A DNA stretch of 32,000 nucleotides from Acidimicrobiales bacterium (GCA_041394165.1 JAWKIT010000004.1:212502-244501); one strand, 5' to 3'. Shown: positions 2,057 to 21,907, counted from the stretch's first letter. The notes: generated from the letters alone by a model not told the origin. Translations and numbers: made by a program.

Positions 2057-2685
2057 CAGCCCTCTCCTCCGAACTCCGCGGTGCCGCCCTCGCCGGTGCG
2101 AGGGTTGCGGACGACCAGCTCCGTGGGGGCGACCCCGCCCGGCCACGAGCCCAGGCCCGTGCCGCGCTTCTCGCCCGGGATGCGGACGTCGGGGTCGTCG
2201 GGCTCGCCGTTGGGGCGGAACCACTTGATCGACTCGAGCGTCGGCTCGATGTCCTCGTCATCGCGCCACACGGCCTCGACGCGCATGCCGATGCGCACCT
2301 CGTGGGCGGGGATCTCCTGGATCAGGTGCATGATCGCCAGGTCGGCCCCGTCGAGCAGGATCAGGGCGCTCGTGTAGGGGATCTCCATCACCGAGCCGTA
2401 GAACTGCAGGTTGACCACGCAGAACGACACGACAGTGCCCACCTGGGCGACCTCGACCTCGATCGGGGTGGCGGCGCCCAGCTCCGGATCGGCGCCGCGC
2501 GGCGGCACGTAGACCCGGCTGTGCTCGTTGGCCTGCTGGCCGATGATCTTCTTCTGGGTGATGCCCCGGAGGAAGCGGGTGGTGGCGTCGCCGGCGGTGA
2601 ACTCGTAGTCGAGCTGGGCCGGGGTGCGCACGCTGCGGACGGGCTCGACGTCGCGGAGCGACTCGGGCAGCGAGATCTCGGTCAT
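2056..2685 (-). CDS. DUF35 OB-fold protein (acyl-CoA-associated, thiolase/aldolase partner)
   Basis: C-terminal 209 aa of ORF 2056..3156(-), starting at ATG 2685 (MTEISLPESLRDVEPVRS...FLRGITQKKIIGQQ...VSFCVVNLQFYG...ILLDGADLAIMHLIQEI...RIGMRVEAVWRDD). This is the typical DUF35 OB-fold layout. There are 4-nt ATGA overlaps with both neighbours. Confidence 0.85.
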   Translation of the reverse strand: MTEISLPESLRDVEPVRSVRTPAQLDYEFTAGDATTRFLRGITQKKIIGQQANEHSRVYVPPRGADPELGAATPIEVEVAQVGTVVSFCVVNLQFYGSVMEIPYTSALILLDGADLAIMHLIQEIPAHEVRIGMRVEAVWRDDEDIEPTLESIKWFRPNGEPDDPDVRIPGEKRGTGLGSWPGGVAPTELVVRNPRTGEGGTAEFGGEG

Positions 2686-3137
2686 GCGACCACCTCCCAG
2701 TGGGCGATGTCCTCGATGCGCCCCTCGCGCTCCTCCGCCCACACCGGCCGGACCTTGGTGCCGGCGGCGACGGCGTCCATGCCGGGCGCCTTCACGGCAC
2801 CGAGCATCGGCGTGTCGGCGCCGTCGGGCACGATCAGCGCCCAGGCGAACGGCTCGTCGAGCGGGTGCTTGGCGTGGGGCGCGGTCACCCACGCCCACGT
2901 CGAGACGGTGCCCTCGGGCCCCACCTCCACCAGCTCGGTGAGGTCGTCCCCGGTGACCGGGTCGAACTCGGCGGGCGGCACGATGACCCGACCGTCGAGC
3001 GCCTTGGACCCCACCAGGACCTGCTCGCGCAGGCCGGTGAGGAAGGCGCCGATGACCGGGCCGGTCGTCCGCTTGAACGGGTACTCGATGATGAGCGGGG
3101 CGCGGAGGATGTCCCCTGGTGCCTGCGGTTCCGTCAC
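2682..3137 (-). CDS. DUF35 OB-fold protein (second copy)
   Basis: C-terminal 151 aa of ORF 2682..4034(-). GTG 3137 starts VTEPQAPGDILRAPLIIEYPFKRTTGPVIGAFLTGLREQVLVGSKALDGRVIVPPAEFDPVTG...FAWALIVPDGADTPMLGAV...GTKVRPVWAEE. Everything upstream in this frame is Arg/Gly junk. The stop overlaps the next start (ATGA). Confidence 0.8.
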   Translation of the reverse strand: MTEPQAPGDILRAPLIIEYPFKRTTGPVIGAFLTGLREQVLVGSKALDGRVIVPPAEFDPVTGDDLTELVEVGPEGTVSTWAWVTAPHAKHPLDEPFAWALIVPDGADTPMLGAVKAPGMDAVAAGTKVRPVWAEEREGRIEDIAHWEVVA

Positions 3138-3148
3138 AGCACGCACAA

Positions 3149-3162
3149 TAGAACACGTTTCA
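3149..3162. promoter_or_regulatory. KstR-type operator (TAGAACACGTTTCA)
   Basis: Fits TnnAACnnGTTnnA exactly. It lies in the 75-nt divergent gap between the DUF35 operon (GTG 3137) and the STAND gene (ATG 3213). It is one of six related palindromes in the window, which also encodes a KstR-like TetR. Confidence 0.75.
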
Positions 3163-3212
3163 GTTTTCGCAAGTTGGCCGCCCGACGGCGCCCGGGCGCG
3201 ACCCCTGGCAGC

Positions 3213-6200
3213 ATGGGCGCCATGACCGACGGGGTGGGGACCGAGCGGGCGATCCGGGTGTTCGTGTCGTCCACCTTCCGCGACATGCAGGCCGAGCGCG
3301 AGGAGCTGGTCAAGCGGGTGTTCCCGCTGGTGCGGCGCCGCTGCGAGGAGCGCGGCGTCGGCTGGTCGGAGGTCGACCTCCGGTGGGGCGTCACCGACGA
3401 GCAGAAGGCCGAGGGCGCCGTCCTCCCCATCTGCCTCGCGGAGATCGACCGCAGCCGCCCGTTCTTCCTCGGCCTGCTCGGCCGCCGCTACGGCTGGGTG
3501 CCCGAGGAGCTGCCCGACGACCTCGCCGACCACCTGCCCTGGCTGCGCGAGCTCGACGGCACCTCGGTCACCGAGATGGAGGTGCTCCACGGCGTCCTCA
3601 ACGATCCCGACGCGGCCGGCCACGCCTTCTTCCACCTGCTCGTCGACGACGGCGCCCCCGACGCCGAGGAGACGCCGGAGGCGACGGCGAAGCAGGCCGC
3701 GCTGAAGGACCGCGTGCGCGCCTCGGGCCATCCCTGGGCCGACTACGCGTCGCCCGCCGAGCTCGGCGAACAGGTCCTCGGCGAGCTCCTCGCCCTCGTC
3801 GACCGGCTGTTCCCCGAGGACGACGCGCCGGACGTCGCCGCGCGCGACGCCGCCGCCCACCGCGCCTACGGGGCGGCCCGGCGCGCCGGCCACATCGACC
3901 GACCGGCGCTGCGAGGGCGCCTCGACCAGCACCTCGCCGGCGACGGACCGCCGCTGCTGCTCGCGGCGGAGGCGGGCGCGGACCTCACCCCGCTCGTCGC
4001 GTCGTGGGCACCGGAGGGCGCCGTCGTGCACCACGTGGGGGCGACGTCGGACGCCGCCGACTGGCGGAACCTGGCGGGCCGGCTCACGATCGCCCTCACC
4101 GTCGCGGCGGGCGGCGAACCGCCCGACCCGGCCACGCTGCCCGACGATGCCGTTGCCGGCGCCGCGCGCCGTTGTTCGGCGCGATCGAGCGCTTCGGGGC
4201 GAGATTTGGGCTCAGCTCGCCGTCGTCGTCGACGGGTGCGAGCTGCTGCTCGACGTCGACGGGGCTCCCGACCTGACCTGGCTTCCGCTCCAGGTACCGG
4301 CGGGCCTGCGCCTCGTGCTCACGAGCGCGTCGAGCCGGACCACCGACGAGGTCCTGCGCCGGGGCTGGGCGGTGGCCGAGGTCCCGCCGCTCGACGATGC
4401 CGAGCGGCGGGCGTTCATCGCCTCGTTCCTCGGCCGCTGGTCGAAGGGCCTCGACCGCGTCCACGTCGATCGCCTGGCCGCCGCGCCCCAGACGGGCACC
4501 CCGCTGTTCCTGCGCACCGTCCTCGACGAGCTGCGCCAGCACGGCGACCACTTCACCCTGGGCGAGGTCATCGAGCGGTACCTCTCGGCCCGGACGGTCG
4601 ATGACCTGCTCGAGCAGGTGCTCGAGCGCTACGAGCGGGACTTCGAGCGCGACCGCCCCGGGCTGGTCCGCGACGCGATGACCGCGGTGTGGGCCGCTCG
4701 TCGAGGCCTCGCCGAACCGGAGCTGCTCGACCTCCTCGCGTCGGGCGACGACCCGCTGCCCGGGGCGATCTGGTCGCCGCTGGTGCTCGCCGCCGAGGAC
4801 GGGCTGGTCACCCGCTCGGGCCTGCTCGGGTTCGCGACCCCGCTCCACCGCCGGGCGGTGGAGGACCGCTACCTGGCCGGCGAGGGCCAGCGCCAGGCCG
4901 CGCACGCTCGTCTGGCCTCCCACTTCGCGTCGCAGCCGCTCGGCCCGCGGGTGGTCGAGGAGCTGCCCTGGGCCCAGCTCGCCGCCGGCGACGTCGACGG
5001 GCTCGTGCGCACGATCGGCGACCTTGGGTACCTGGCGATCGCCTACCCCCACGCGCCACGCGACCTCCGAACGCTGTGGGCTCGGGCGTCGGAGGCGGGC
5101 CGCTCGGTCGTCGACGCGTACCGGCCGGTCCTCGACGACCCGGCCGCGCACCCCGACGCCGCGTGGGCGGTGGCCCGCCTGGTCACCGATGCGGGCCACC
5201 CGACCGAGGCCCTCGCCCTCAACCGGTTCCTCGTCGAGCACCACCGAGCGGAGGCTGCCGCCGGCGTCGAGCGAGGCGCCGCCCGCCTGCGGGGCTCGCT
5301 GCTGAACCTGGGCGCCGCCCTCTGGCTGCAGGGCGACCTGCTGGGGGCCGAGCCACCCCTGCGGGAGGCGATCGAGCTGGCCCGCGGCGCGGGCGACGAG
5401 GTCGTGCTGCGCGCCGCGCTCGGCAACCTCGGCCTCGCCCTCCGCGACCGCGGCGACCTCGACGGTGCGCTCCCCCTCCTCGAGGAGGAGGCGACGCGCA
5501 GCCGGGCGGCGGGCGACCTGGCCGAGCTGCAGGCCAGCCTCGGCAACCGGGCCGGGCTGCTGCGCCAGCGGGGCCGCTTCGCCGACGCCCGAGCGCTGAT
5601 GGCCGAGCAGGAGGCGATCGCGCGCGGCACGGGCGATGCCCAGGGCGTCGCCGCCGCGCTGGTGGGCCAGGCCACCGTGGCCGCCGACACCGGCGATCCG
5701 CTCGGCGCCCTGGCCGCCTTCGAGGCCTACCGGGCGTGGGCGGCCGAGGCCGGCGACCTCCACGCCGAGACCGAGGCGCTCGTGAACCTGTCGAACACGC
5801 TCCGGCAGGTGGGCCGACACGACGAGGGCGCGGCGCGGGCCGAGGAAGCCGAGGCCCTGGCCCGGCGCACCGACGACGGTGCCCTGCTCGCCCGGGTGCT
5901 CGACGGCCGGGCCCGCATCGCCTCCGAGCAGGGCCGGTGGCCGGAGGTCGAGCGGCTGGCCGCCGAGGCCGCCCTCACCGCCCGCGCGGCCGCCGCGCCC
6001 GCCGCCCTCGTGCTCGCCCTCGGCAGCCTGGGGACGGCTCGGCGCGAGCTCGGGAACCTGCCCGGCGCCACCGAGGCGGCCCAGGAGGAGCTCGCCGTGG
6101 CCCAGCAGCTCGGCGACCCCGCCGCGGTGGCCACCGCGCAGGTGAACCTGGGCAACGTGGCCATCGCGTCGAACGACCTGCGAGGCGCCCTCGCCTGGTA

Positions 6201-6891
6201 CGGCGCGGCCGAGCCGCCCCTGCGCGAGCGCGGCCTGGCCATGGTGCTCGTGCCCCTCCTCAACAACCGGTGGCAGGTGCACGCCGCCCTCGGCGACCAC
6301 GTGTCGGCCGCCACCGACCTGGCCGCGTGCACCCACCAGTGCGTCCTGGCCGGCGCCTGGCAGCAGGCGCTCCAGGTCGGCGCGCAGGCGATCCAGCACC
6401 TGCACGGCACCGGTCGCCCCGGCGAGGCCGGGCCCGTGCTGGAGGACCTCGCCACGGCTGCCCGCGCCCTGGGCGACGACGCATCGCTCCAGCAGGCGCT
6501 CGGCGACCACGCCCTGCTGGTGATGGGCCAGGGCGACGGGGCCCGGGCGGCGGCCCTCCTCGACGAGCAGGAGCGCATCTGCCGGCGCATCGGCCACCAG
6601 GTCGGTCTGGCCGCGTGCATCGGCAACCGGGCCATCCTGAAGCGCCAGCAGGGCGACCTGCCCGGCGCGCTGGCCGACGTCGAGGAGCAGCTCCGCATCG
6701 CCCAGGCGGCGGGCGACGGCCAGGGCGTGCTGTTCGCCACGGCCAACCGAGGCGAGCTGCTCGGTGCGCTGGGCCGCACGGAGGAGGCGCGCCGCGACCT
6801 CGAGTGGGCGCGCCAGGTCGCCGCGCAGAACGGGCTCGCACCGATGGCCCAGCAGCTCGACCAGATGATCGCCGCCCTGCGCGACCGCTGA
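3213..6891 (+). pseudogene. DUF4062 / NACHT-like STAND (degenerate P-loop) / TPR-array protein, frame-disrupted as sequenced
   Basis: Two ORFs join into one protein.
- Frame of 2700..4604 from ATG 3213: MGAMTDGVGTERAIRVFVSSTFRDMQAEREELVKRVFP...VDLRWGVTDEQ...LLGRRYGWVP (DUF4062 hallmark), then ...PPLLLAAEAGADLTPLVASWA...VVHHVGATSDAADW.
- Frame of 4147..6891: ...QLAVVVDGCELLLDVDGAPDLTWLP...RLVLTSAS...AAAPQTGTPLFLRTVLDELRQHGDH..., followed by about 12 TPR-like 40-aa units.
The frame switch lies somewhere in 4140-4215. The length 3679 nt is not a multiple of 3. Confidence 0.8.
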
Positions 6892-6895
6892 ACGG

Positions 6896-7405
6896 CTACC
6901 CGCGGTCGTGCAGGTGCTCGGCGGTGGTTCCGCCGATCTCCATCGGGTCCATGCCCAGCTTGCGGTGGTCCCAGGAGCGCAGCCGCTCGGTCCGCACCCG
7001 CACGGCGACGCGGTTGTGGAGCATGAACTCGACGAGGGGCTTGACCTCCTCGGAGTACGGGCCGTTGTAGCGCTCCCACACCTGCACGCCGACCTGCCAG
7101 AGGGCGTCGGCGTCGTCGACGATCTCGGCGGTGCCCTCGACGGCGACGCCGCGCAGCGAGTCGTAGGTCTCGCCGTCCTCGACCAGCACGGTGATTCGGG
7201 GATCGCGGCGCAGGTTCACGGCCTTCTGCGACTTGGCCTTCGTCTCGAACCAGATCGCGCCGTCGACCAGGCCGTACCACATCGCCACGGCGTGGGGGTG
7301 GCCGCTGGGGCCGTTGGTGACCATGATCGCCGTCCGGCTCTGCTCGAGGTACTCGACGATCTCGTCGTCGCTCATCTCGATCGTCTTGCGCTGGTTCGAA
7401 CCCAT
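6896..7405 (-). CDS. PPOX-class (pyridoxamine 5'-phosphate oxidase-like, probably F420/FMN-dependent) protein
   Basis: Last 169 aa of ORF 6896..8386(-), from ATG 7405: MGSNQRKTIEMSDDEIVEYLEQSRTAIMVTNGPSGHPHAVAMWYGLVDGAIWFETKAKSQKAVNLRRDPRITVLVEDGETYDSLRGVAVEGTAEIV. This is the typical split-barrel PPOX pattern. Confidence 0.8.
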   Translation of the reverse strand: MGSNQRKTIEMSDDEIVEYLEQSRTAIMVTNGPSGHPHAVAMWYGLVDGAIWFETKAKSQKAVNLRRDPRITVLVEDGETYDSLRGVAVEGTAEIVDDADALWQVGVQVWERYNGPYSEEVKPLVEFMLHNRVAVRVRTERLRSWDHRKLGMDPMEIGGTTAEHLHDRG

Positions 7406-7522
7406 GGCGCCGGACCCTACATTTCTCGGAAAAGTCCGCGCCGGGCGTCGATCGAGCAGGATCCCGTTCGTCGTCAGGGTGAGGACCGGCACCGAGTCGG
7501 CCCCGAACGAAGGGATCCAGCC

Positions 7523-7885
7523 ATGACCCAGTACCTCCTCTCCGTGCACTACGTCGACGGCCAGGGCGCCACCCCGCCCGAGGACATGCAGGCCGCGTTC
7601 GAGGCGGTGGACCGCTTCAACCAGAAGCTGCAGGACACCGGCGCCTGGGTGTTCGCCGGCGGCCTCGAGACGCCCGACACCTCGACCGTGGTGGACGCCA
7701 CCGGCCCAGAGGTGCTCACCACCGATGGCCCGTTCTCGGAGGCCAAGGAGCAGATCGGCGGCTTCTGGGTGATCGAGGCCCCCGACCTCGACGCCGCCCT
7801 CGCCCTCGCCACGGAGGGCTCGGCCGCCTGCCGAGGCCCCGTCGAGGTGCGCCCGTTCCAGTCCGAGCCGCCCGCCGCCGACTGA
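7523..7885 (+). CDS. YCII-related / DGPF-domain protein
   Basis: ATG 7523 is preceded by GAAGGGA. The 120-aa product is [13 protein letters not shown]...[33 protein letters not shown], containing the DGPF motif. The stop at 7883-7885 is one base before the sigma-factor start. Confidence 0.85.
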
Positions 7886-7886
7886 C

Positions 7887-9107
7887 GTGCCCGAGCGCCT
7901 CGCGCCCGGCGACCTCGACCGGATCTTCCGGCAGGAGTCGGGCCGCTGCCTCGCCACCCTGGTGCGCGTCCTCGGGAGCATCGAGCTCGCCGAGGACGCG
8001 CTCCAGGAGGCGGTCGTGGTCGCCCTCGCCACCTGGCCCGAGCGGGGCACGCCGCCGAACCCGGGTGCGTGGCTCACCACGACCGCCCGGAACCGGGCGA
8101 TCGACCGCATCCGACGCGAGTCCACCCGAGGCGAGCGCGAGGCCGAGGCCACGACGATGCTCGACCACGACGAGCCCCACGAGGTCTGGCCGGTCGCCGA
8201 CGACCAGCTCCGCCTCGTCTTCACCTGCTGCCACCCGGCCCTCGCCCCCGAGGCCCGGGTGGCCCTCACCCTCCGGCTGATCGCCGGGCTGCAGACCCCC
8301 GAGATCGCCGCCAGCTTCCTGGTGCCGGAGGCCACCATGGCCCAGCGCCTGGTCCGAGCCAAGAAGAAGATCCGCACCGCCAACATCCCCTACCGGGTGC
8401 CCGGGAGCGCGGAGCTGCCCGACCGCCTCCGGTCGGTGCTCGCGGTGATCTACCTCGTCTTCAACGAGGGCCACCGGGCCACGTCGGGCGAGGAGCTCGT
8501 GCGAGCCGACCTCTGCGACGAGGCCCTCCGGCTGGCGCGCCTGCTGGTGGACCTCATGCCCGACGAGCCCGAAGCCCTCGGCCTCCTGGCGCTGCTGCTG
8601 CTCACCGACGCCCGCCGCCGCACCCGCACCGACGCGGCGGGCGACCTCGTGCTCCTGGCCGACCAGGATCGCACCCGGTGGGACCGGGCCCAGATCGACG
8701 AGGGCCACGAGCTCGTCCGACGCTGCCTGCGGCGCGACCAGCCCGGTCCGTACCAGCTGCAGGCGGCCATCGCCGCCGTGCACGCCGACGCGGCGCGCGC
8801 CGAGGACACGGACTGGCCCCAGATCGTCGCACTGTACGACCACCTGCTGCGCCTGGCCCCCACGCCCGTGGTGCGCCTCAACCGGGCGGTGGCCGTCGCC
8901 GAGGTGGCGGGCCCCGACGCCGGGCTGGAGGCCCTCGACGGGGTGGACCTGGCGGGCTACGCGCCGTTCCACGCGACGCGGGCCGACCTGCTGCGCCGGG
9001 CCGGGCGCGCGGCGGAGGCCGTCGCGGCCTACGACGCCGCCATCGCGGCCGCCACGGCGCCCGCCGAGGTGCGGTTCCTCAGGGCGCGCCGGGCGTCGAT
9101 CGCCTGA
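7887..9107 (+). CDS. ECF42-type RNA polymerase sigma factor with C-terminal TPR-like extension
   Basis: ORF 7887..9107 with a GTG start.
- Sigma2-like region: [45 protein letters not shown]
- Sigma4-like region: [39 protein letters not shown]
- Then about 230 aa of helical extension.
It lies immediately downstream of a DGPF gene, the known ECF42 context. Confidence 0.85.
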
Positions 9108-10801
9108 CCGGCTCGAAGCCGTTGCACGCCAGCATCGCCTGGAGGTTGCGGGCGCTCTCGAGGTTGCTCGCCCGCCCCTCCGGCGTCAGCTCGCCCCACG
9201 GCCGCACGAAGGGGTTCTCCTTCTTGGCCTCGACCTTGTCGGGCCCGTAGGTCCACCCCTGCGCCTCGCGCATCGCCCGCCAGCGCTCGTGCTCCGCCTC
9301 GGCGAGGGCGTCGATGTCGACCGACGTCAGCTCGGTCTGCGGGGCGCCCCACCGCTGGAGCGGCACCAGGTCGCACCCGATGGCGTCGAGCTGGGCGATG
9401 ATCCCGTCGACCCGGGCCCGGCTGTCCTCGCGCTCCTCGTCGCTCAGCTCGATCCACGGCCGAGCCAAGCTCGACGGCGGGGCGTCGGGAGCCCGCTGGG
9501 CGAGGTAGTCCTCGTGCACCGCCTCCGCCAGCTGCTCCCGCACGCCGCCCTCGATGGTGGCGGGCGTGCAGGACCGCTCCAGGAACGGGAACCGGACGAT
9601 CCCGGGGAACGCCCCGCCCGCCCCGTCGTCGAGCAGGGCGCCGAGCCCACCCGAGGTCCGCGTGCGCACCACGATCGGCACCTCCTCGGGGAGGCGCTGG
9701 TGCAGGAACATGGCGTGGGCGATCGCCCTCGGCTCCTCCGCGAACACCGCCGCCACCCGCCGGCGGGTCCTCGGCGAGCAGGGCGGTGAAGCCCTGCACC
9801 TCCTCAGGATCAGGCGCGTCGAGGTCGAGGTCGACGAGGGTCGGCTCGCACACCTCGCCGAGCGCCGGGTGCTGGAGGCGCAGCGCCTCCCAGCGGCCCC
9901 GCGCCGCCCGGTCGACGACGGTGGGATAGAGCTTGGTGCCGGGGTGCAGGTCGGCCCACTGCTGGCAGAGGGCCAGCAGCAGGCTGCGCCCGAACCGCCC
10001 CATGCTCATCACCATCAGGTGGGGCGGCTGGTCGCCGGAGAGGTCGGGGCCGTGCGCCGACAGGAGGGCCCGGGCGCCACGCTCGTGCAAGCTGAACCAG
10101 CTGGTGCGCACGGCGCTCGACGCGTCGAGGTCGGTGGCCCGCAGGAGCACGGCGAGCTCGGCGTCGGTGAGCTGCACCGCGCAGCGCACGGGCGCGGCTC
10201 GCTTCGAGGTCGAGGCGGCAGCCGCGATCGCCTGGACGATCTCGACGTTGGCGGCGTCGTCGCCGCTGACGACGACGATCCGCGAGGCCCCGGCGAGGCC
10301 GGCCTCGTGGAGGGCCGCGGGATCGGCGGCGCTGGCCTCCACGATGTGGTCGAGGCGGTCCGAGAGCCCGGCGGCCGACGCGACGGGCGCCGACGGCTCG
10401 ATGGCGACCACCCGTTCGCCCGCCTCGAGGTAGGCGCTGGCGACGCGGGTGCCGGTCTCGCCGAGGCCGCACACGATCGTGTGGCCCGACGAGCGGGCGG
10501 AGCGGAGCCGGTCGAGCTCGCGGCGGAACACCACGGTGGCGCTCTGCAGCACGGTGGAGGCGGCCAGGATCGGGACCACGAAGCGGGCGAGCTGCAGCTG
10601 CCAGTTCATGGGCCCCGAGCTGCCGCTGTAGTCGAGCGTGGCCAGCTGGAGGGTCAGGTAGAGGTTGTCGAGGAACGTGCGCTCGATGTCGTCGGCCGAG
10701 CCCTGCTTCACGAAGCCGGTGATGCCGATGACCAGGATCACCAGCCACAGGACCGCGAGGGCCCACCAGCGGAAGCGGGCGCTGCGCAGCCACCGCTTCA
10801 C
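9079..10801 (-). pseudogene. K-channel-like 2TM / TrkA-N (RCK) / second Rossmann-like / double RyR-domain protein, one frame disruption as sequenced
   Basis: - N-terminal part, in the frame of ORF 9029..10801 (GTG 10801): MKRWLRSARFRWWALAVLWLVILVIGITGFV...FLDNLYLTLQLATLDYSGSSGP...LARFVVPILAASTVL...GHTIVCGLGETGTRVASAYLEAGERVVAIE...
- C-terminal part, in the frame of ORF 9079..9756: VAAVFAEEPRAIAHAMFL...LAEAVHEDYL...PWIELSDEERE...LAEAEHERWRAMREAQGWTYGPDKVEAKKENPFVRPWGELTPEG (RyR repeats).
The frame switch is at about 9757-9770. The length 1723 nt equals 3n+1. Confidence 0.8.
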
Positions 10802-11277
10802 GGCGCGCGCTCCACGTCGACCACCTCGACGGGCCGACCGCGCCGCCGGGCCTCGGCCACCAGGTCCGCGGTGCCGCCCCGCCCCCGACCGGGCCCGCCG
10901 TCCCAGAGCGCGACGAGCACGTCGGCGCCCTCGAGCACGGCCAGCCCGGCGCGCTCGTAGGCCGCCTCGCGGGAGCCGTCGTCGTCGGGGGGTGGAGCGA
11001 TCACCCTCACCTCGTCGGCCGCGTCGAGCAGTTCGTTGAACTCCTCGACCGAGGCCCCGTCGCCGAAGTCGGCGGCGTACTCGGCGGGCTCGAGCGGGAG
11101 CAGGGCGACCAACCGGCCGGCCGGCCGGTCGAGCACGGCCCGGGCCACCAGCCGGTCGGCCCCCTCGGCCAGGCTCGACACGGCGGTGAGGGGCGGGTCG
11201 AGGCGATCGAGCACCGCGTCGACCGACGCGCGCACGCCGGCGGGGTCGGCCAGCGACCGGTGCCCCGTGACCCCCAC
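10798..11277 (-). CDS. small SLOG / LOG-DprA-like (or N-deoxyribosyltransferase-like) Rossmann-fold protein
   Basis: Tail of ORF 10798..12549(-): VGVTGHRSLADPAGVRASVDAVLDRLDPPLTAVSSLAEGADRLVARAVLDRPAGRLVALLPLEPAEYAADF...AYERAGLAVLEGADVLVALWDGGPGRGRGGTADLVAEARRRGRPVEVV. The order b-strand/GxR, AEGAD, LP...Y, then D-hhhAhhDG...GGT...A...G.PV mirrors LOG/DprA/TIGR00725-type proteins. The start is ambiguous: GTG 11277 is chosen, and in-frame GTG 11310 is the alternative. The stop TGA overlaps the GTG of the channel gene (GTGA at 10798-10801). Confidence 0.6.
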   Translation of the reverse strand: MGVTGHRSLADPAGVRASVDAVLDRLDPPLTAVSSLAEGADRLVARAVLDRPAGRLVALLPLEPAEYAADFGDGASVEEFNELLDAADEVRVIAPPPDDDGSREAAYERAGLAVLEGADVLVALWDGGPGRGRGGTADLVAEARRRGRPVEVVDVERAP

Positions 11278-11290
11278 CCGAGAACGGCGA

Positions 11291-11319
11291 CTGCCGCCCG
11301 CGTCTCCCACGGGCGGCAG
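11291..11319 (-). terminator. GC-rich hairpin downstream of the ADH gene (possible terminator or attenuator)
   Basis: CTGCCGCCCG-9 nt-CGGGCGGCAG is a perfect 10-bp stem, 45 nt after the ADH stop (11364). On the minus strand it is followed only by a weak T-containing tract (tcgccgttct). Confidence 0.35.
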
Positions 11320-11363: not shown

Positions 11364-12443
11364 TCAGAAGGTGATGACCGTGCGGATGACCTCGCCGCGC
11401 TTCATGGCGTCGAAGGCATCGTTGATCTCGTCGATCTTCATGCGCTTGGAGATCATGCCCTCGAGGTCGAGCTGGCCGGCCTTCCAGAGCGCCAGCAGGC
11501 GGTGGAAGTCCGAGCGGACGTCGACCGAGCCGTAGTAGCTGCCCATGAACGTCTTCTCGGAGAAGAAGATCTCGAACCCGTTGAACGAGACCTCCTGGTC
11601 CATCTTGCCGACGCCGATGATGACCGCGGTGCCGCCGCGGCGGATGGCGTCGTAGGCGGCTCGCATGGTCACGGGGAGCCCGATCGCCTCGAACGCGTAG
11701 TCGAAGCCGTCGCCGGTGAGCTCGGCCTGGAGGGCGGGCAGGTCGTCGGGGGTGCAGGCGTGGGTGGCGCCGAACTGCTTGGCGAGCTCGTGCTTGCCCT
11801 CGTTCAGGTCGACGGCGACGATCACGGCCGCGCCGGCCACGCGGGCACCCTGGATCGCCGCGACGCCCACGCCGCCCGCACCGAACACGACCACCTTGGA
11901 GCCGGGCTCGACCTTGGCCGTGTTGATCACCGCGCCGACGCCGGTGGAGACGCCGCAGCCGATGAGCGACGCGATCTCGAAGGGCACGTCGTCGTCGATC
12001 TTGATGGCTGCCTCCTGGGGCAGCGTCAGGTACTCGGCGAAGGTGCCGGTGCCGGCCATGCCGAAGACCGGCTCGCCGTTGCGGGTGAAGCGGGGCAGCC
12101 CGGCGATGGCGAACTGGATCATCACGCACAGGTGCGGCTGCTTGCGCTCGATGCAGTTGTTGCACTTGCCGCACGGCGGGCTCCAGGCCACGACGACGTG
12201 GTCGCCCTCGGCGAGGCCCTCGACGCCCTCGCCCACGGCGGTGACGACGCCGGCACCCTCGTGGCCGGGCACGAACGGCGCCCCCTGGGGCAGCGAGCCC
12301 TGCATGGCGTGGAGGTCCGAGTGGCACACGCCCGTGGCCTCGATCTTGACGGTGACCTCGCCCGGGCCGGGCGGGGCGATCTCGATGTCGTCGACGACCT
12401 CGAGCTTCTCGTCGCCGGTCTGGTGCAGCAGCGCAGCGCGCAT
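11364..12443 (-). CDS. zinc-dependent alcohol dehydrogenase (MDR family)
   Basis: ORF 11364..12443(-), 359 aa. It carries GVCHSDLH and PGHEGAGVV zinc-site motifs, the structural-Zn segment CGKCNNCIERKQPHLC, and NAD motif VVFGAGGVGVAAIQ. GAGGAG lies 6 nt upstream of the ATG. Confidence 0.9.
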   Translation of the reverse strand: MRAALLHQTGDEKLEVVDDIEIAPPGPGEVTVKIEATGVCHSDLHAMQGSLPQGAPFVPGHEGAGVVTAVGEGVEGLAEGDHVVVAWSPPCGKCNNCIERKQPHLCVMIQFAIAGLPRFTRNGEPVFGMAGTGTFAEYLTLPQEAAIKIDDDVPFEIASLIGCGVSTGVGAVINTAKVEPGSKVVVFGAGGVGVAAIQGARVAGAAVIVAVDLNEGKHELAKQFGATHACTPDDLPALQAELTGDGFDYAFEAIGLPVTMRAAYDAIRRGGTAVIIGVGKMDQEVSFNGFEIFFSEKTFMGSYYGSVDVRSDFHRLLALWKAGQLDLEGMISKRMKIDEINDAFDAMKRGEVIRTVITF

Positions 12444-12486
12444 GTGGACTCCTCGTGTTCCCCTGGGGTGTGCGGGGCGACCCTAG

Positions 12487-12541: not shown

Positions 12542-12555
12542 TGAAACACGTTCCA
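12542..12555. promoter_or_regulatory. KstR-type operator (TGAAACACGTTCCA)
   Basis: Fits TnnAACnnGTTnnA. It lies 9 nt upstream of a TATCCT -10-like hexamer (12565-12570), which is 8 nt before ATG 12579. Confidence 0.7.
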
Positions 12556-14931: not shown

Positions 14932-16217
14932 TCAGCGGAAGAGGGCCTCGCCGACGTAGCCACCGCGCGCCGGCACCCCGGGCGGGACGGCGAAGAGGCC
15001 CGAGCCGGTGTGCTGGAGGTACTCGCTCATCGCGTCGTCGCGCGCCAGGCGGGTCTGCATCGGCACGTACTGGCGCGCCGGGTCGCGGACGTAGGCGAGG
15101 AAGAACAGCCCGGCATCGAGGCGACCGAGGCCGTCGGACCCGTCGGTGAAGTTGTAGCCCCGGCGCAGCAGGGCGGCGCCCTCGTTCTGGTCGGGGTGCG
15201 CGAGGTGCACGTGGGAGGAGGTCGGGATCAGGGGCTCGCCATCGGTGCCGGTGGCGGCGAAGTCGGGGGTTGCGTGCTCGTCGCCGCCCGAGAGGGGCGC
15301 GCCGGCGCCCTTCGTCCGCCCGATCACCGCCTCCTGCTCCTGGAGCGAGGTGCGGTCCCAGGTCTCGATGTGCATGCTGATGCGTCGGGCCACCAGGTAG
15401 CTGCCGCCTGCGAGCCAGGCGGCCCGATCGTCGTCGGCCCTGTCGACCCACACGTGGCGATCGAGCATCTCCTGCTCCTCCGCCTTGAGGTTCGCGGTGC
15501 CGTCCTTGAACCCGAACAGGTTGCGCGGCGTCTGCTGCGACGTCGACGTGGACGAGGTCCGCCCGAAGCCGAGCTGGCTCCAGCGGACGCTCGCCGCGCC
15601 GAAGCCGATCCGGGCGAGGTTGCGCACCGCGTGCACGGCGACCTGCGGGTCGTCGGCGCACGCCTGGACGCAGAGGTCGCCGCCGCTTCGCGCGTCGTCG
15701 AGCTGGTCGCCCGGGAAGTGGGGCAGCTCGATCAGGCGCTCCGGGAGGCGATCGGCGAGGCCGAAGCGGTCGACGCCCTCGGCGGTCTGGAAGAGGCTGC
15801 GGCCGAGCCCGAAGGTGATCGTGAGGCGCGACGGCGGGAGGTCGAGCGCCTCGCCGGTGTCGTCGGGGGCGCCGCGTACGCCGTCGACCGCTCCCCGGGC
15901 CCGGCCGGGCGCCCCTCGGTCATCCGGGCGGCAGCATCGGTCCAGGCCCGGAGGAGGTCGACGAGCTCGTCGCGGTCGGACGTGATCACGTCGAAGGCGG
16001 CGAAGTGGAGGCGGTCCTGGGCCGGCGTGGCGATGCCCGCCTGGTGGGCACCGTGGAACGCCACCGGCTCGTCGGACGACGGAGCGGTCGAGCGATCCTC
16101 GGGCGCCGAGGCCCGACCGAGCGCCACGCCCGACGCCCCGGCCACGCCGGCGGTGACGACCCCGGCACCGGCGAGGCCGAGCAGCCGACGGCGCGACACC
16201 GCGGGCGCGCCGCTCAC
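14932..16217 (-). pseudogene. efeB: Dyp-type peroxidase EfeB (Tat-exported), one frame disruption as sequenced
   Basis: - N-terminus, in the frame of ORF 15732..17312, from GTG 16217 (GTGA overlap with the efeO stop): VSGAPAVSRRRLLGLAGAGVV... (twin-arginine signal) ...FHGAHQAGIATPAQDRLHFAAFDV...AARMTEGRPAG.
- The rest, in the frame of ORF 14932..16269: ...DDTGEALDLPPSRLTITFGLG...FGFKDGTANL (the DyP GxxDG motif)...HVHLAHP.
The frame switch is at about 15885-15912, in runs of C/G. The length is 1286 nt (3n+2). Confidence 0.85.
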
Positions 16218-20246: not shown

Positions 20247-20260
20247 TAGAACACGTTCTC
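20247..20260. promoter_or_regulatory. KstR-type operator (TAGAACACGTTCTC)
   Basis: It lies 13 nt upstream of the fadE ATG (20234). Its terminal TA is the start of a TAATCT -10-like hexamer on the minus strand (20248-20243). The divergent WS/DGAT gene starts at 20343. Confidence 0.75.
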
Positions 20261-20342
20261 GTTCGGCGGCCGCCTCGGCGCTCGGGCACGGCACGCGGCG
20301 ATCGGTGCCAGAATGCCCCCGGACCCGATGAGGAGGACGCAG

Positions 20343-21907
20343 ATGGAACGACTGACCGGGCTCGACGCCGCCTTCCTCTACCTCGAGAACCCCACCAACC
20401 ACATGCACGTGGCGATGACGATGGTCCTCGACCCGTCCACCGTGCCCGGGGGCTACACGTTCGAGAACCTGAAGGAGTTCATCCGGGGCCGGCTCCACCT
20501 GGTCCCGCCGTTCACCCGGCGGCTGGTGGAGGTCCCCTCAACCTCGCCCACCCGGTCTGGGTGGAGGACCCCGACTTCGACATCGACTTCCACATCCGGC
20601 GCATCGGCTGCCCGTCGCCCGGAGGCCGCCGCGAGCTGGGCGAGATGGCCGGCCAGATCGCCAGCACGCCCCTCGACCGCAACCGGCCCCTCTGGGAGCT
20701 GTGGGTCATCGAGGGGCTCAAGCAGGACCGCATCGGCGTGGTCACCAAGGTCCACCACGCGGCCATCGACGGCAGCTCCGGGGCCGAGCTGATGGTGCAC
20801 CTGTTCGACCTCGAGCCCGAGCCGGCCGACCCACCCCCGCCCGGCGAGCGCGACGCCGAGCACATCCCGAACGACTTCGAGCTGCTCGGCCACGCCGCGG
20901 CGTCGCGCGTCCGCAAGCTGATCAAGCTGCCGAAGCTGCTGGGCGAGACGGTCGGGGCGGTGAACCGCGTGGCCCAGGGCCGCCGAGACCCCACGAGGAA
21001 GGTCGGCGCGGTGCCCTCACGGCGCCCCGCACGCCGTGGAACGGCCCGCTCAGCCCGATGCGCAACGTCGGCTTCGCCCGCGTCCCCCTCGACGACGTCA
21101 AGGCGCTCAAGACCACCTTCGGCTGCACGGTGAACGACATCGTCCTGGCCCTCTGCGCCGGCACGCTGCGCTCCTACATGCTCGACAAGGGCGAGGTTCC
21201 CGACATCCCGCTCGTGGCCGCCTGCCCGGTCTCGGTGCGCGGGCGGCGACAAGGAGGTGGGCAACAAGGTCTCGGCCATGTTCACCACCCTCGACAGCCA
21301 GCTCGACGACCCGCTCGAGCGCGTCCGCGCCATCCAGGCGTGCACGGTGGGCGCCAAGGAGGAGCACAACGCGGTGGGCGCCGCCATGCTCCAGGACTGG
21401 GCCGAGTACGCGGCGCCGAACACCTTCAACCTGGCGTCGCGCCTCTACTCCAGCTGGGGCCTGGCGGACTCGCACCGCCCGATCCACAACGTGATCATCT
21501 CGAACGTGCCCGGCCCGCCGTTCCCGCTCTACTACGCGGGCTGCGAGATGGTGGCGGCCTACCCCATGGGCCCGGTGATGGAGGGCGTGGGCCTCAACAT
21601 CACGGTGATGAGCTACCGCGGCTCGGTCGACTTCGGCTTCATGGTCGACCGCGAGCTCGTGCGCGACGTGTGGAACATGGCCGACCGGGTGAAGGACGCC
21701 CTCGCCGAGCTCCAGGCCGCCGCCGCCCAGCTCGAGGGCGGCGGATCGAGCGCCGGGCCCACCGAGCTCGCCGCCATCCCCGCCCCCGAGACCGCCTCGT
21801 CGGCGAACGGGGTGCAGGCTCCGAGCGCCGACGGAGCCACCGGCGACGACGACGGCTCCGACGTCCCCCGGGCCAAGCCCGCCCCCCTGCGCGCCGACCT
21901 GGCCTGA
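20343..21907 (+). pseudogene. wax ester synthase / diacylglycerol acyltransferase (WS/DGAT), three frame disruptions as sequenced
   Basis: ATG 20343 follows GAGGAGGA. The protein is spread over four ORF-track frames:
- [24 protein letters not shown]...RRLVEVP (20313 ORF)
- [19 protein letters not shown]...[12 protein letters not shown] (the HHxxxDG motif; 20561 ORF)
- [32 protein letters not shown]...ACPVSVR (20701 ORF)
- GNKVSAMFTTL...NVIISNVPGPPFPLYYAG (21257 ORF)
The switches are at about 20535-20538 (C run), about 21011-21018 (C run) and about 21238-21246 (G run). Confidence 0.85.

Follow-up and report, generated by a model that had tools for sequence, protein, structure and literature searches.

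Gene layout and domain organization

The 32,000-nt stretch analysed here (GCA_041394165.1 JAWKIT010000004.1:212502-244501, from an Acidimicrobiales bacterium; hereafter, the window) carries at 3213-6891, on the plus strand, a gene for a large NLR-like protein with an N-terminal DUF4062 domain, a central module of the STAND type and a C-terminal array of TPR units (Table 1). On the opposite strand lie two further genes that recur beside its relatives, one for a small SLOG-superfamily protein and one for a membrane protein with TrkA_N and RyR domains, while an operon with DUF35 genes is transcribed divergently from it. According to the analysis of open reading frames (ORFs), the coding region of the STAND gene is spread over three reading frames; repair of both frame breaks gives a single ORF without internal stops and a protein of about 1,227 aa, whose numbering is used throughout. 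The initial annotation, made from this sequence, left open whether the gene is a relic or a variant that signals without nucleotide exchange. The evidence presented below favours, with moderate confidence, a functional tripartite NLR-like protein composed of a TIR-like NAD+ hydrolase (NADase), a pseudo-NTPase STAND module and a TPR sensor.

Table 1. Positions of the features discussed in the text, counted from the first nucleotide of the window.
Feature	Position	Strand	Evidence
Whole gene: DUF4062 (TIR-like, putative NADase), degenerate STAND/NACHT-derived module, 13 TPR units	3213-6891	+	ORFs; L001 orthologue
TIR-like domain (putative NADase), aa 13-199, five parallel strands	3249-3812	+	Pfam; PDB 11gz_A profile match; AlphaFold2 (AF2)
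Codon of E123, in SVTEMEV; counterpart of the TEP1 catalytic Glu E1008	3579-3581	+	
Degenerate Walker A LLLAAEAGADLTP, replacing hhhhGESGxGKSA	3954-3992	+	alignment
Frame break 1, from frame 0 into frame 2, within GCCGGCGCC; GGG in the orthologue	4156-4160	+	
Frame break 2, from frame 2 into frame 1, at GAGATTTGGGCTC	4201-4210	+	
Walker B strand LAVVVDGCELL, with D341 at 4231-4233	4216-4248	+	D341 conserved at 94-99% in every group
Codon of T543, at the winged-helix histidine position (GFxHDYLR in canonical members)	4837-4839	+	
TPR-like units, 13 in number, all exactly 40 aa long and perfectly in register (aa 693-1212, 520 C-terminal residues)	5287-6846	+	
TrkA_N (RCK-type Rossmann) and RyR protein with two transmembrane helices (partner 2)	9079-10801	-	Pfam; RyR repeat matches in PDB
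SLOG-superfamily protein, 170 aa, YpsA/YspA-like, intact in the window (partner 1)	10798-11310	-	neighbourhood; Pfam; AF2; Foldseek
Tat-signal Dyp-type peroxidase (EfeB-like), one break at about 15880-15930	14932-16200	-	Pfam
WS/DGAT (wax-ester synthase) gene, four frame pieces, three breaks	20250-21907	+	Pfam
KstR-type box TAGAACACGTTTCA, upstream of DUF35 by 12 nt (start codon GTG at 3137 on the minus strand)	3149-3162	.	

Intact orthologues of 1,226 aa were found in two contigs that are collinear with the window at ~94% nucleotide identity, and both have a degenerate Walker A identical to that of the window. One of them (L001:1191-4871) is located in a contig of an Acidimicrobiales metagenome-assembled genome (MAG), and the other (L079), 99.9% identical to L001 and belonging to the same population, in a SPAdes-style (NODE) contig of an Illumina metagenome.

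The N-terminal piece (3213-4169) matches DUF4062 (PF13271) with E 2.5e-13 and 50.5 bits, well above the gathering cutoff of 24.7, in agreement with the assignment made initially. The Pfam match spans only aa 15-113, whereas the predicted NADase domain covers aa 13-199, where the AF2 model has strands at 13-20, 50-55, 85-89, 138-143, and 175-178, flanked by helices. The same piece matches the TIR-like domain of human TEP1 (PDB 11gz_A) with E 1.9e-24, and the family profile does so with E 2.7e-37 over positions 12-228. The window domain and the NADase domain of TEP1 share ~50% identity over 116 residues, and the catalytic segment SVTEMEV is the same in both proteins. In this register E123, R23, and R92 correspond to E1008, R908, and R976 of TEP1; E123 is invariant in 170 of 170 aligned relatives, among them those that lack the Walker A lysine (see below), and R23 and R92 are conserved. 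Since the TEP1 residues are matched and E123 is invariant among the relatives, the effector looks catalytically competent as an NAD+ hydrolase.

DUF4062 had been described in the initial annotation as uncharacterised, which has become outdated, as NADase activity is reported in preprints of 2026, while the grouping of the domain with TIR and N-deoxyribosyltransferase folds is correct according to a 2026 DUF4062 preprint. It acts as a TIR-like, Glu-dependent NADase in the defence system Swarozyc and in human TEP1 (Osinski et al., bioRxiv 10.64898/2026.05.01.722283), and the equivalent catalytic Glu of an S-x-T-E-x-E segment is E1008 in TEP1, E97 in KpSwz, and E87 in Eva01. Conserved aromatic and acidic-S-Y-T motifs of DUF4062 are described in the preprint on Evangelion (bioRxiv 10.64898/2026.06.25.731849). 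With Swarozyc and Evangelion the window protein shares the TIR-like core, the acidic-S-x-T-E-x-E region, and, at the N-terminus, a conserved aromatic motif (STF), and NAD+ hydrolysis would be the expected output. However, these systems are small and consist of a single gene, their sensor is helical or of the AUX type, a STAND module is lacking, and they are found on plasmids or in defence islands (bioRxiv 10.64898/2026.05.01.722283, 10.64898/2026.06.25.731849), whereas the window protein has 1,227 aa and its gene is chromosomal and syntenic.

A close parallel in layout comes from human proteins. In NWD1, NWD2, NPHP3, and TEP1, DUF4062 adjoins a NACHT ATPase (Osinski et al., bioRxiv 10.64898/2026.05.01.722283), that is, a TIR-like DUF4062, a STAND module, and repeats follow each other in the same order as in the window protein, and NPHP3 ends in TPRs as well. 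Unlike these four proteins, the window protein is bacterial, has lost the Walker A lysine and the winged-helix histidine, contains neither TROVE nor WD40, and is accompanied by the SLOG and TrkA_N-RyR genes. The DUF4062-NACHT-TPR layout makes it the bacterial counterpart of NPHP3, with a NADase domain close to that of TEP1, at a time when the functions of both human proteins are being re-examined following the NADase findings of 2026.

The TPR array, presumed to be the sensor, comprises 13 units in register, one more than the approximately 12 repeats noticed initially, and Pfam reports TPR_12 six times, as well as TPR_MalT, in the C piece of the gene. The DUF4062-NACHT-TPR family is very large: 1,166 relatives were found with the repaired 685-aa N-terminal part as query, and an exhaustive search yielded 3,283 clusters at 50% identity (E <= 1e-30). 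Some members are labelled 'nephrocystin-3', and relatives give sub-threshold matches to the Pfam NPHP3 models. Scans for promoters and terminators detected none at either end of the gene. Its G+C content (0.74-0.81 at 3500-6750) exceeds that of the flanks (0.67-0.73), while the G+C content at third codon positions (GC3), 0.94, is like that of other genes; the increase is probably due to the Ala/Gly/Arg-rich composition of the TPR units and not to foreign origin.

Loss of the Walker A lysine in an actinobacterial clade

The Walker A column was fixed by MAFFT alignments of 40 and then about 180 relatives, in which the window segment AAEAGADLT aligns exactly with the canonical GESGxGKS. The P-loop substitutions proposed initially are thus placed in the right column, and the reservation that the segment might not be Walker A at all is not borne out. 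In repaired numbering, the changes are G252A, G257D, K258L, and S259T, with G255 kept, and A-A-E-A-G-A-D-L-T stands where GxxxxGK[ST] is expected. The Walker B-like strand and the downstream arm, noted earlier as well preserved, are indeed so: D341 is kept, as are the helical arm and, with R367 and R376, the sensor-1 strand. Nevertheless, the Walker B segment D-G-C-E-L has one acidic residue as compared with two in the NACHT pattern D[GAS]hDE; canonical relatives read D-A-L-N-Q.

The STAND fold, with its succession of nucleotide-binding, helical and winged-helix domains, is confirmed by the AF2 model (pLDDT 90.8, pTM 0.85), for which Foldseek finds MalT (8bob), APAF-1 (1z6t), Avs3 (8dgc), NOD2 (5irn), and NLRC4 (4kxf) with probability 1.00, as well as RPP1 and CED-4. 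At the same time, Pfam NACHT (PF05729) has no match at E <= 1 in the intact orthologue; P0001 scores 18.5 bits, which is sub-threshold, and the canonical relative P0019 passes with 35.4 bits. Hence, the homology to NACHT depends on the link within the family, with 48% identity to P0019. The window protein belongs to the DUF4062 NADase family and descends from NACHT-type STANDs, from which it departs in Walker A, in the winged-helix histidine, and in the response of Pfam NACHT, and it is not a recognised Avs/bNACHT protein.

For the analysis of clades, a neighbour-joining tree of 170 well-aligned relatives was built and considered under two rootings. The motif G-x-G-K-[ST] is present in 115 of these sequences, referred to as canonical, and the Walker A lysine is lost in the other 55 (K-less). 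All K-less sequences form a single clade with no canonical member inside, under both rootings. The majority of this clade reads G-x-x-G-x-G-[AT]-S, and acidic residues occupy position 344. Nested within it is a monophyletic subclade of 18 sequences, which include those from the window, Aquihabitans, Iamiaceae, Ilumatobacteraceae, and Nocardioides, with the fixed motif G-x-x-G-x-D-[LVI]-T-P, where D257 and T259 are conserved at 100% and P260 at 94%. The first P-loop glycine is additionally lost in the window and in L001.

The winged helix changes along with the P-loop. Position 543, located just past the wing hairpin in the AF2 model, is His in 114 of the 115 canonical sequences; the intermediate group has Thr in 12 sequences, His in 12, and Ser in seven, and the subclade has Thr in 18 of 18. 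The order of events may be reconstructed as an initial loss of the Walker A lysine, followed by replacement of the last P-loop glycine with Asp together with that of the ADP-contacting winged-helix His with Thr.

The K-less genes appear to be maintained. The reading frame is continuous in about 40 K-less loci, with products of 1,200-1,290 aa, and pairwise ratios of non-synonymous to synonymous substitution rates (dN/dS) within the 18-member subclade are 0.2-0.4. Between the window and L001, dN/dS is 0.15 overall (74 non-synonymous and 168 synonymous substitutions), 0.16 in the NTPase region, and 0.17 in the TPR region, whereas DUF4062 has no non-synonymous and 11 synonymous substitutions; no domain shows relaxed selection. 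The TPR region, for which such a check had been suggested, is therefore under purifying selection, and the notion of a relic gene does not agree with the low dN/dS and with the intact orthologues, in which the multiple stops expected of plain decay are lacking (L001, L079, and the ~40 K-less ORFs).

Drift in a dying gene is hardly compatible with these observations, because the loss is single and ancient, proceeds in steps, leads to a new motif, and is accompanied by purifying selection. What fits best is that the central module is a NACHT-derived STAND oligomerisation domain that turned into a pseudo-NTPase in an actinobacterial clade. Of the two possibilities offered by the initial annotation, signalling by a pseudo-NTPase without nucleotide exchange is thereby the one that agrees best with the clade-wide nested loss, the loss of the winged-helix His, the intact proteins, and the selection.

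STAND and NLR proteins are thought to depend on the exchange of ADP for ATP, and some plant NLRs work without an intact P-loop. In bNACHT01, a change of the lysine to A or R abolishes function. There is precedent for the loss in prokaryotes, as degenerate Walker motifs are reported for KpAvs8 (2026 STAND survey), and inactive STAND NTPases in prokaryotic conflict systems are, according to a paper citing that work, described by Kaur et al. (2020/2021). Inactive STAND modules were hence known previously, and the window protein resembles them, including those of plant NLRs, in that the module is kept despite disrupted Walker motifs. It differs from them in the single ancient loss, the stepwise decay, the fixed new motif, the correlated histidine loss, and the measured purifying selection. 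New are the size and age of the K-less clade, its motif, the correlation with the histidine, the selection measurements, and the SLOG and TrkA_N-RyR partners. Literature searches on degenerate Walker A motifs in STANDs, as well as on SLOG/RyR associations, returned mostly noise. A large clade under purifying selection in which the lysine, one glycine of the P-loop, and the His of the winged helix are gone, with a NADase that to judge from its residues is apparently active, offers a system in which to ask what the nucleotide does.

Partner genes and a possible signalling pathway

Clustering of the ORFs flanking K-less loci identified two partner genes. Across loci, a gene for a ~165-aa protein is followed by an overlapping one for a ~570-600-aa protein with two N-terminal transmembrane (TM) helices, TrkA_N, and a C-terminal RyR; in the window, the start of the second gene overlaps the stop codon of the first (10798-10800). 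The unit is encoded on the other strand and lies tail-to-tail with the STAND gene. It is present in 15 of 15 DLT-type loci with enough flank, usually at 0-180 nt from the STAND stop codon. It also occurs in the majority of the remaining K-less loci and, among canonical GKS loci, in the nearest ones and not in distant ones; adjacency is observed in ~35 loci. Reciprocally, when we started from three SLOG homologues (JGI, ENA, Logan), all three led back to the trio in otherwise unrelated surroundings, and in all three loci the P-loop is DLT-type, with Thr in place of the winged-helix His.

The small partner is a SLOG-superfamily protein: Pfam YAcAr is found in 33 of 63 homologues, and the AF2 model (pLDDT 94.3) has YpsA (2nx2, TM-score 0.70) as its top Foldseek match, followed by DprA, ShosA, LOG proteins, and EcThsA. 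The TrkA_N-RyR protein may be a channel, as its architecture of two TM helices and an RCK-type domain suggests; its TM region gave no sequence match to solved channels. The two proteins are concrete candidates for downstream steps of a pathway.

The spacing of the trio varies. In the Acidimicrobiales lineage (6896-9107 of the window; L002-L006, L033, and L080) PNPOx-like, YCII, and sigma-factor genes, with GFO_IDH in L080, lie between the STAND gene and the unit, which directly adjoin each other in most lineages besides this one. In two K-less loci, L020 and L021, a SLOG-like gene is found 8 and 114 nt from the STAND gene and TrkA_N-RyR was not detected; this may be a variant module. A sensor/helper pair of STAND proteins was also considered and dropped, as neither the window nor the +/-10 kb around the gene at any of the loci contains a second copy, such as a canonical GKS paralogue next to the K-less gene; an unlinked helper may still exist.

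Thoeris relies on a cyclic ADP-ribose isomer, which is produced by a TIR enzyme and recognised by the SLOG domain of ThsA. The trio is similar in that a TIR-type, presumably NAD+-consuming sensor is kept beside a SLOG-fold protein, for which Foldseek gives a link to EcThsA. The differences are a giant STAND-TPR sensor, a stand-alone 170-aa SLOG protein without SIR2 or Macro, a putative 2TM-TrkA_N-RyR effector, the convergent arrangement in place of one operon, and a signal molecule that is hypothetical. The second comparison is with Avs/bNACHT systems, which have the same effector-NOD-TPR layout and STAND fold, with Avs3 (8dgc) among the Foldseek matches. However, in this case the effector is DUF4062, PADLOC finds no match, bNACHT01 requires the Walker A lysine, and the window gene lies outside the defence-island and mobile-element settings of those systems.

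By analogy, the conserved trio suggests a Thoeris-like NAD-signal pathway. Binding of a ligand to the TPR array would relieve autoinhibition, as in Avs/bNACHT, the scaffold of the nucleotide-binding and oligomerisation domain (NOD) would assemble without nucleotide exchange, and the clustered TIR-like domains, activated by proximity, would cleave NAD+. Loss of NAD+, ADP-ribose, or a derivative could then be sensed by the SLOG protein and/or TrkA_N, acting on the membrane protein, so that the overall logic of sensor, signal, and effector would be that of Thoeris. The complete chain, a vertically inherited actinobacterial pathway from a nucleotide-independent sensor through a NADase and a SLOG read-out to gating of the 2TM-RCK-RyR protein, is put forward tentatively, as a reading that is less likely than not to be correct. 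If it holds, it would be a prokaryotic counterpart both of the NPHP3/TEP1 architecture and of animal signalling from ADP-ribose or cyclic ADP-ribose (cADPR) to TRPM2/RyR, and a natural experiment in which a STAND switch works without nucleotide.

Several observations weigh against an active, nucleotide-independent signalling protein with an immune function. Firstly, nucleotide independence is something we infer from the loss of residues, and D341 of Walker B, D348, D354, R367, and R376 are kept at 94-100%, which makes non-canonical nucleotide binding possible. Secondly, full-length human NPHP3, NWD1, and NWD2, with the same order of DUF4062 and NACHT, have no NADase activity in vitro (bioRxiv 10.64898/2026.05.01.722283). 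Thirdly, coupling to the neighbouring genes is weakened by the absence of the unit from Propionibacteriaceae-type K-less loci (L029, L038, L040, L046, L049) and by its orientation, as it is convergent with the STAND gene, not co-transcribed with it, and 2.2-4.3 kb away in the lineage of the window. Finally, an immune role is at most putative: the neighbours are metabolic, with no defence islands, and there is no PADLOC model for any of the three proteins. The PADLOC run that had been advised for this gene (2023 models) returned a generic TPR model for the STAND protein and no Avs/bNACHT-type system, and no curated defence-system model for the SLOG or TrkA_N-RyR protein; NCBIfam likewise had nothing for the STAND protein beyond generic TPR matches.

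It is accordingly quite possible, although we would put it somewhat below an even chance, that the trio is a housekeeping module of NAD or ion homeostasis or of stress signalling and not an anti-phage system. We are cautious about an immune role because the chromosomal position among metabolic genes is stable, defence neighbours are absent, and the rate of evolution is moderate. Indeed, across Acidimicrobiales the STAND gene keeps its place between the DUF35-thiolase operon and the PNPOx/YCII genes, the neighbours in L080, L081, and L083 are metabolic with no defence island among them, divergence is 5.5% as compared with 12% for nearby genes, and dN/dS of the TPR region is not elevated; moreover, NPHP3 and TEP1 are listed among the non-immune STANDs (2026 STAND survey). 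On the other hand, phage defence is the role of those bacterial DUF4062 proteins that have been tested to date (2026 DUF4062 preprints), and the effector-NOD-TPR layout is that of Avs/bNACHT, where the TPR sensors of Avs bind phage proteins.

Less probable, and in our opinion unlikely, is a deviant NTPase in which the NOD binds or responds to nucleotide through a non-canonical pocket. The retained acidic and arginine residues listed above would be consistent with it, as would the acidic position 344 of the K-less clade and the strong conservation of the degenerate loop itself, which is evidently constrained. What argues for the pseudo-NTPase instead is the joint disappearance of three residues (Walker A lysine, final glycine of the P-loop, His of the winged helix), the abolished function of bNACHT01 upon replacement of the lysine, and the blindness of Pfam NACHT to the domain even in an intact orthologue.

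Frame breaks and the upstream region

A frame switch had been suspected at 4140-4215. It is real in the given sequence and is in fact double, with breaks at ~4156-4160 and ~4201-4210, and the stretch between them (4160-4210), which had seemed protein-like in the third frame, reads there as RRAPLFGAIERFGARFG and aligns to relatives. Compared with L001, the window has two additional nucleotides at ~4156 and two at ~4201, and each break can equally be described as a 3-nt in-frame indel combined with the loss of 1 nt from a G-run.

The STAND gene is not exceptional in this respect, as at least seven frame breaks affect four well-conserved genes of the 32-kb window, and nonsense substitutions number zero. 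The other broken genes were located by a GC3 phase scan and Pfam. In the wax-ester synthase gene the coordinates of WS_DGAT_cat continue across the pieces (1-62, 64-203, 222-263, then WS_DGAT_C), with two of the three junctions in C-runs, and in the peroxidase gene the match to Dyp_perox_N stops in one frame and resumes in the following one at the same profile position, 49. The TrkA_N-RyR gene is broken at ~9758, where it is 2 nt shorter than its counterpart in L079, a single ORF of 692 aa. The majority of junctions are in G/C runs. An error model restricted to homopolymers suits most of them and fails at 9758, where the 2-nt difference is outside a homopolymer, an observation that counts against an artefact. 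Still, because at least three other genes have breaks of the same type, the relatives are intact, and relaxed selection is absent, both breaks of the STAND gene are very probably assembly or sequencing indels. Given the number of frame-breaking indels, pseudogene calls in the window are not to be trusted without reads.

That the window copy is instead a genuine, very recent pseudogene, with frameshifts that are real in the strain while the family functions elsewhere, has a rather low probability. It would account for the two breaks as they stand in the sequence, and frame switches are seen in 12 of 78 related loci, including L064 (see below). However, these loci are mostly from long-read MAGs, and neither the dN/dS of 0.15, the lack of nonsense substitutions, nor the similar breakage of at least three unrelated conserved genes within 32 kb is what a decaying gene would lead one to expect. 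The case of L064 (10001-13687), from the complete genome of Aquihabitans daechungensis DSM 27986 (CP172265), has two frame switches, at ~aa 500 and ~aa 750, after which the original frame is regained; a true pseudogene and a fault in the assembly are the two explanations.

A mosaic or recombinant origin of the region, which was considered in view of the absence of mismatches to L001 at 2513-3119, was rejected, since the divergence from L079 follows the constraint on genes: 1.5% in thiolase/DUF35, 5.5% in the STAND gene, and 12% at 8500-11250. The divergently transcribed segment 998-3137 on the minus strand contains two tandem DUF35 (OB-fold) genes and an SCP-x-type thiolase, and is ~1.5% from L079, its neighbours being at 5-12%.

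Between this operon and the STAND gene lies a 75-nt divergent intergenic region (3138-3212). The box in it, TAGAACACGTTTCA, fits the KstR consensus TnnAACnnGTTnnA, a pattern that occurs three times in the window against zero expected. In eight loci the distance from the box to the DUF35 start is fixed at 12 nt, while that to the STAND gene ranges from 75 to 6,351 nt. Because of this constancy and this variation, the KstR-like box is the operator of the DUF35 operon and not that of the STAND gene. Thus, the shared region and the box described in the initial annotation do exist, whereas the case for a shared operator is weakened, and if KstR has any effect on the STAND gene, this merely follows from the two being adjacent in the lineage of the window. 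The idea that the protein takes part in lipid or steroid catabolism under the control of KstR, to which the 75-nt divergent region with its perfect TnnAACnnGTTnnA box would lend itself through a promoter shared with the DUF35-thiolase operon, is very improbable in the light of the fixed spacing and of the unrelated contexts of the STAND gene in Nocardioides and other lineages.

Two more exact matches to TnnAACnnGTTnnA are located at 11572-11585 and 12542-12555, the latter in the region that separates a zinc alcohol dehydrogenase gene (11364-12482, minus strand) from the next gene, which diverges from it. These additional boxes suggest a local KstR-like regulon.

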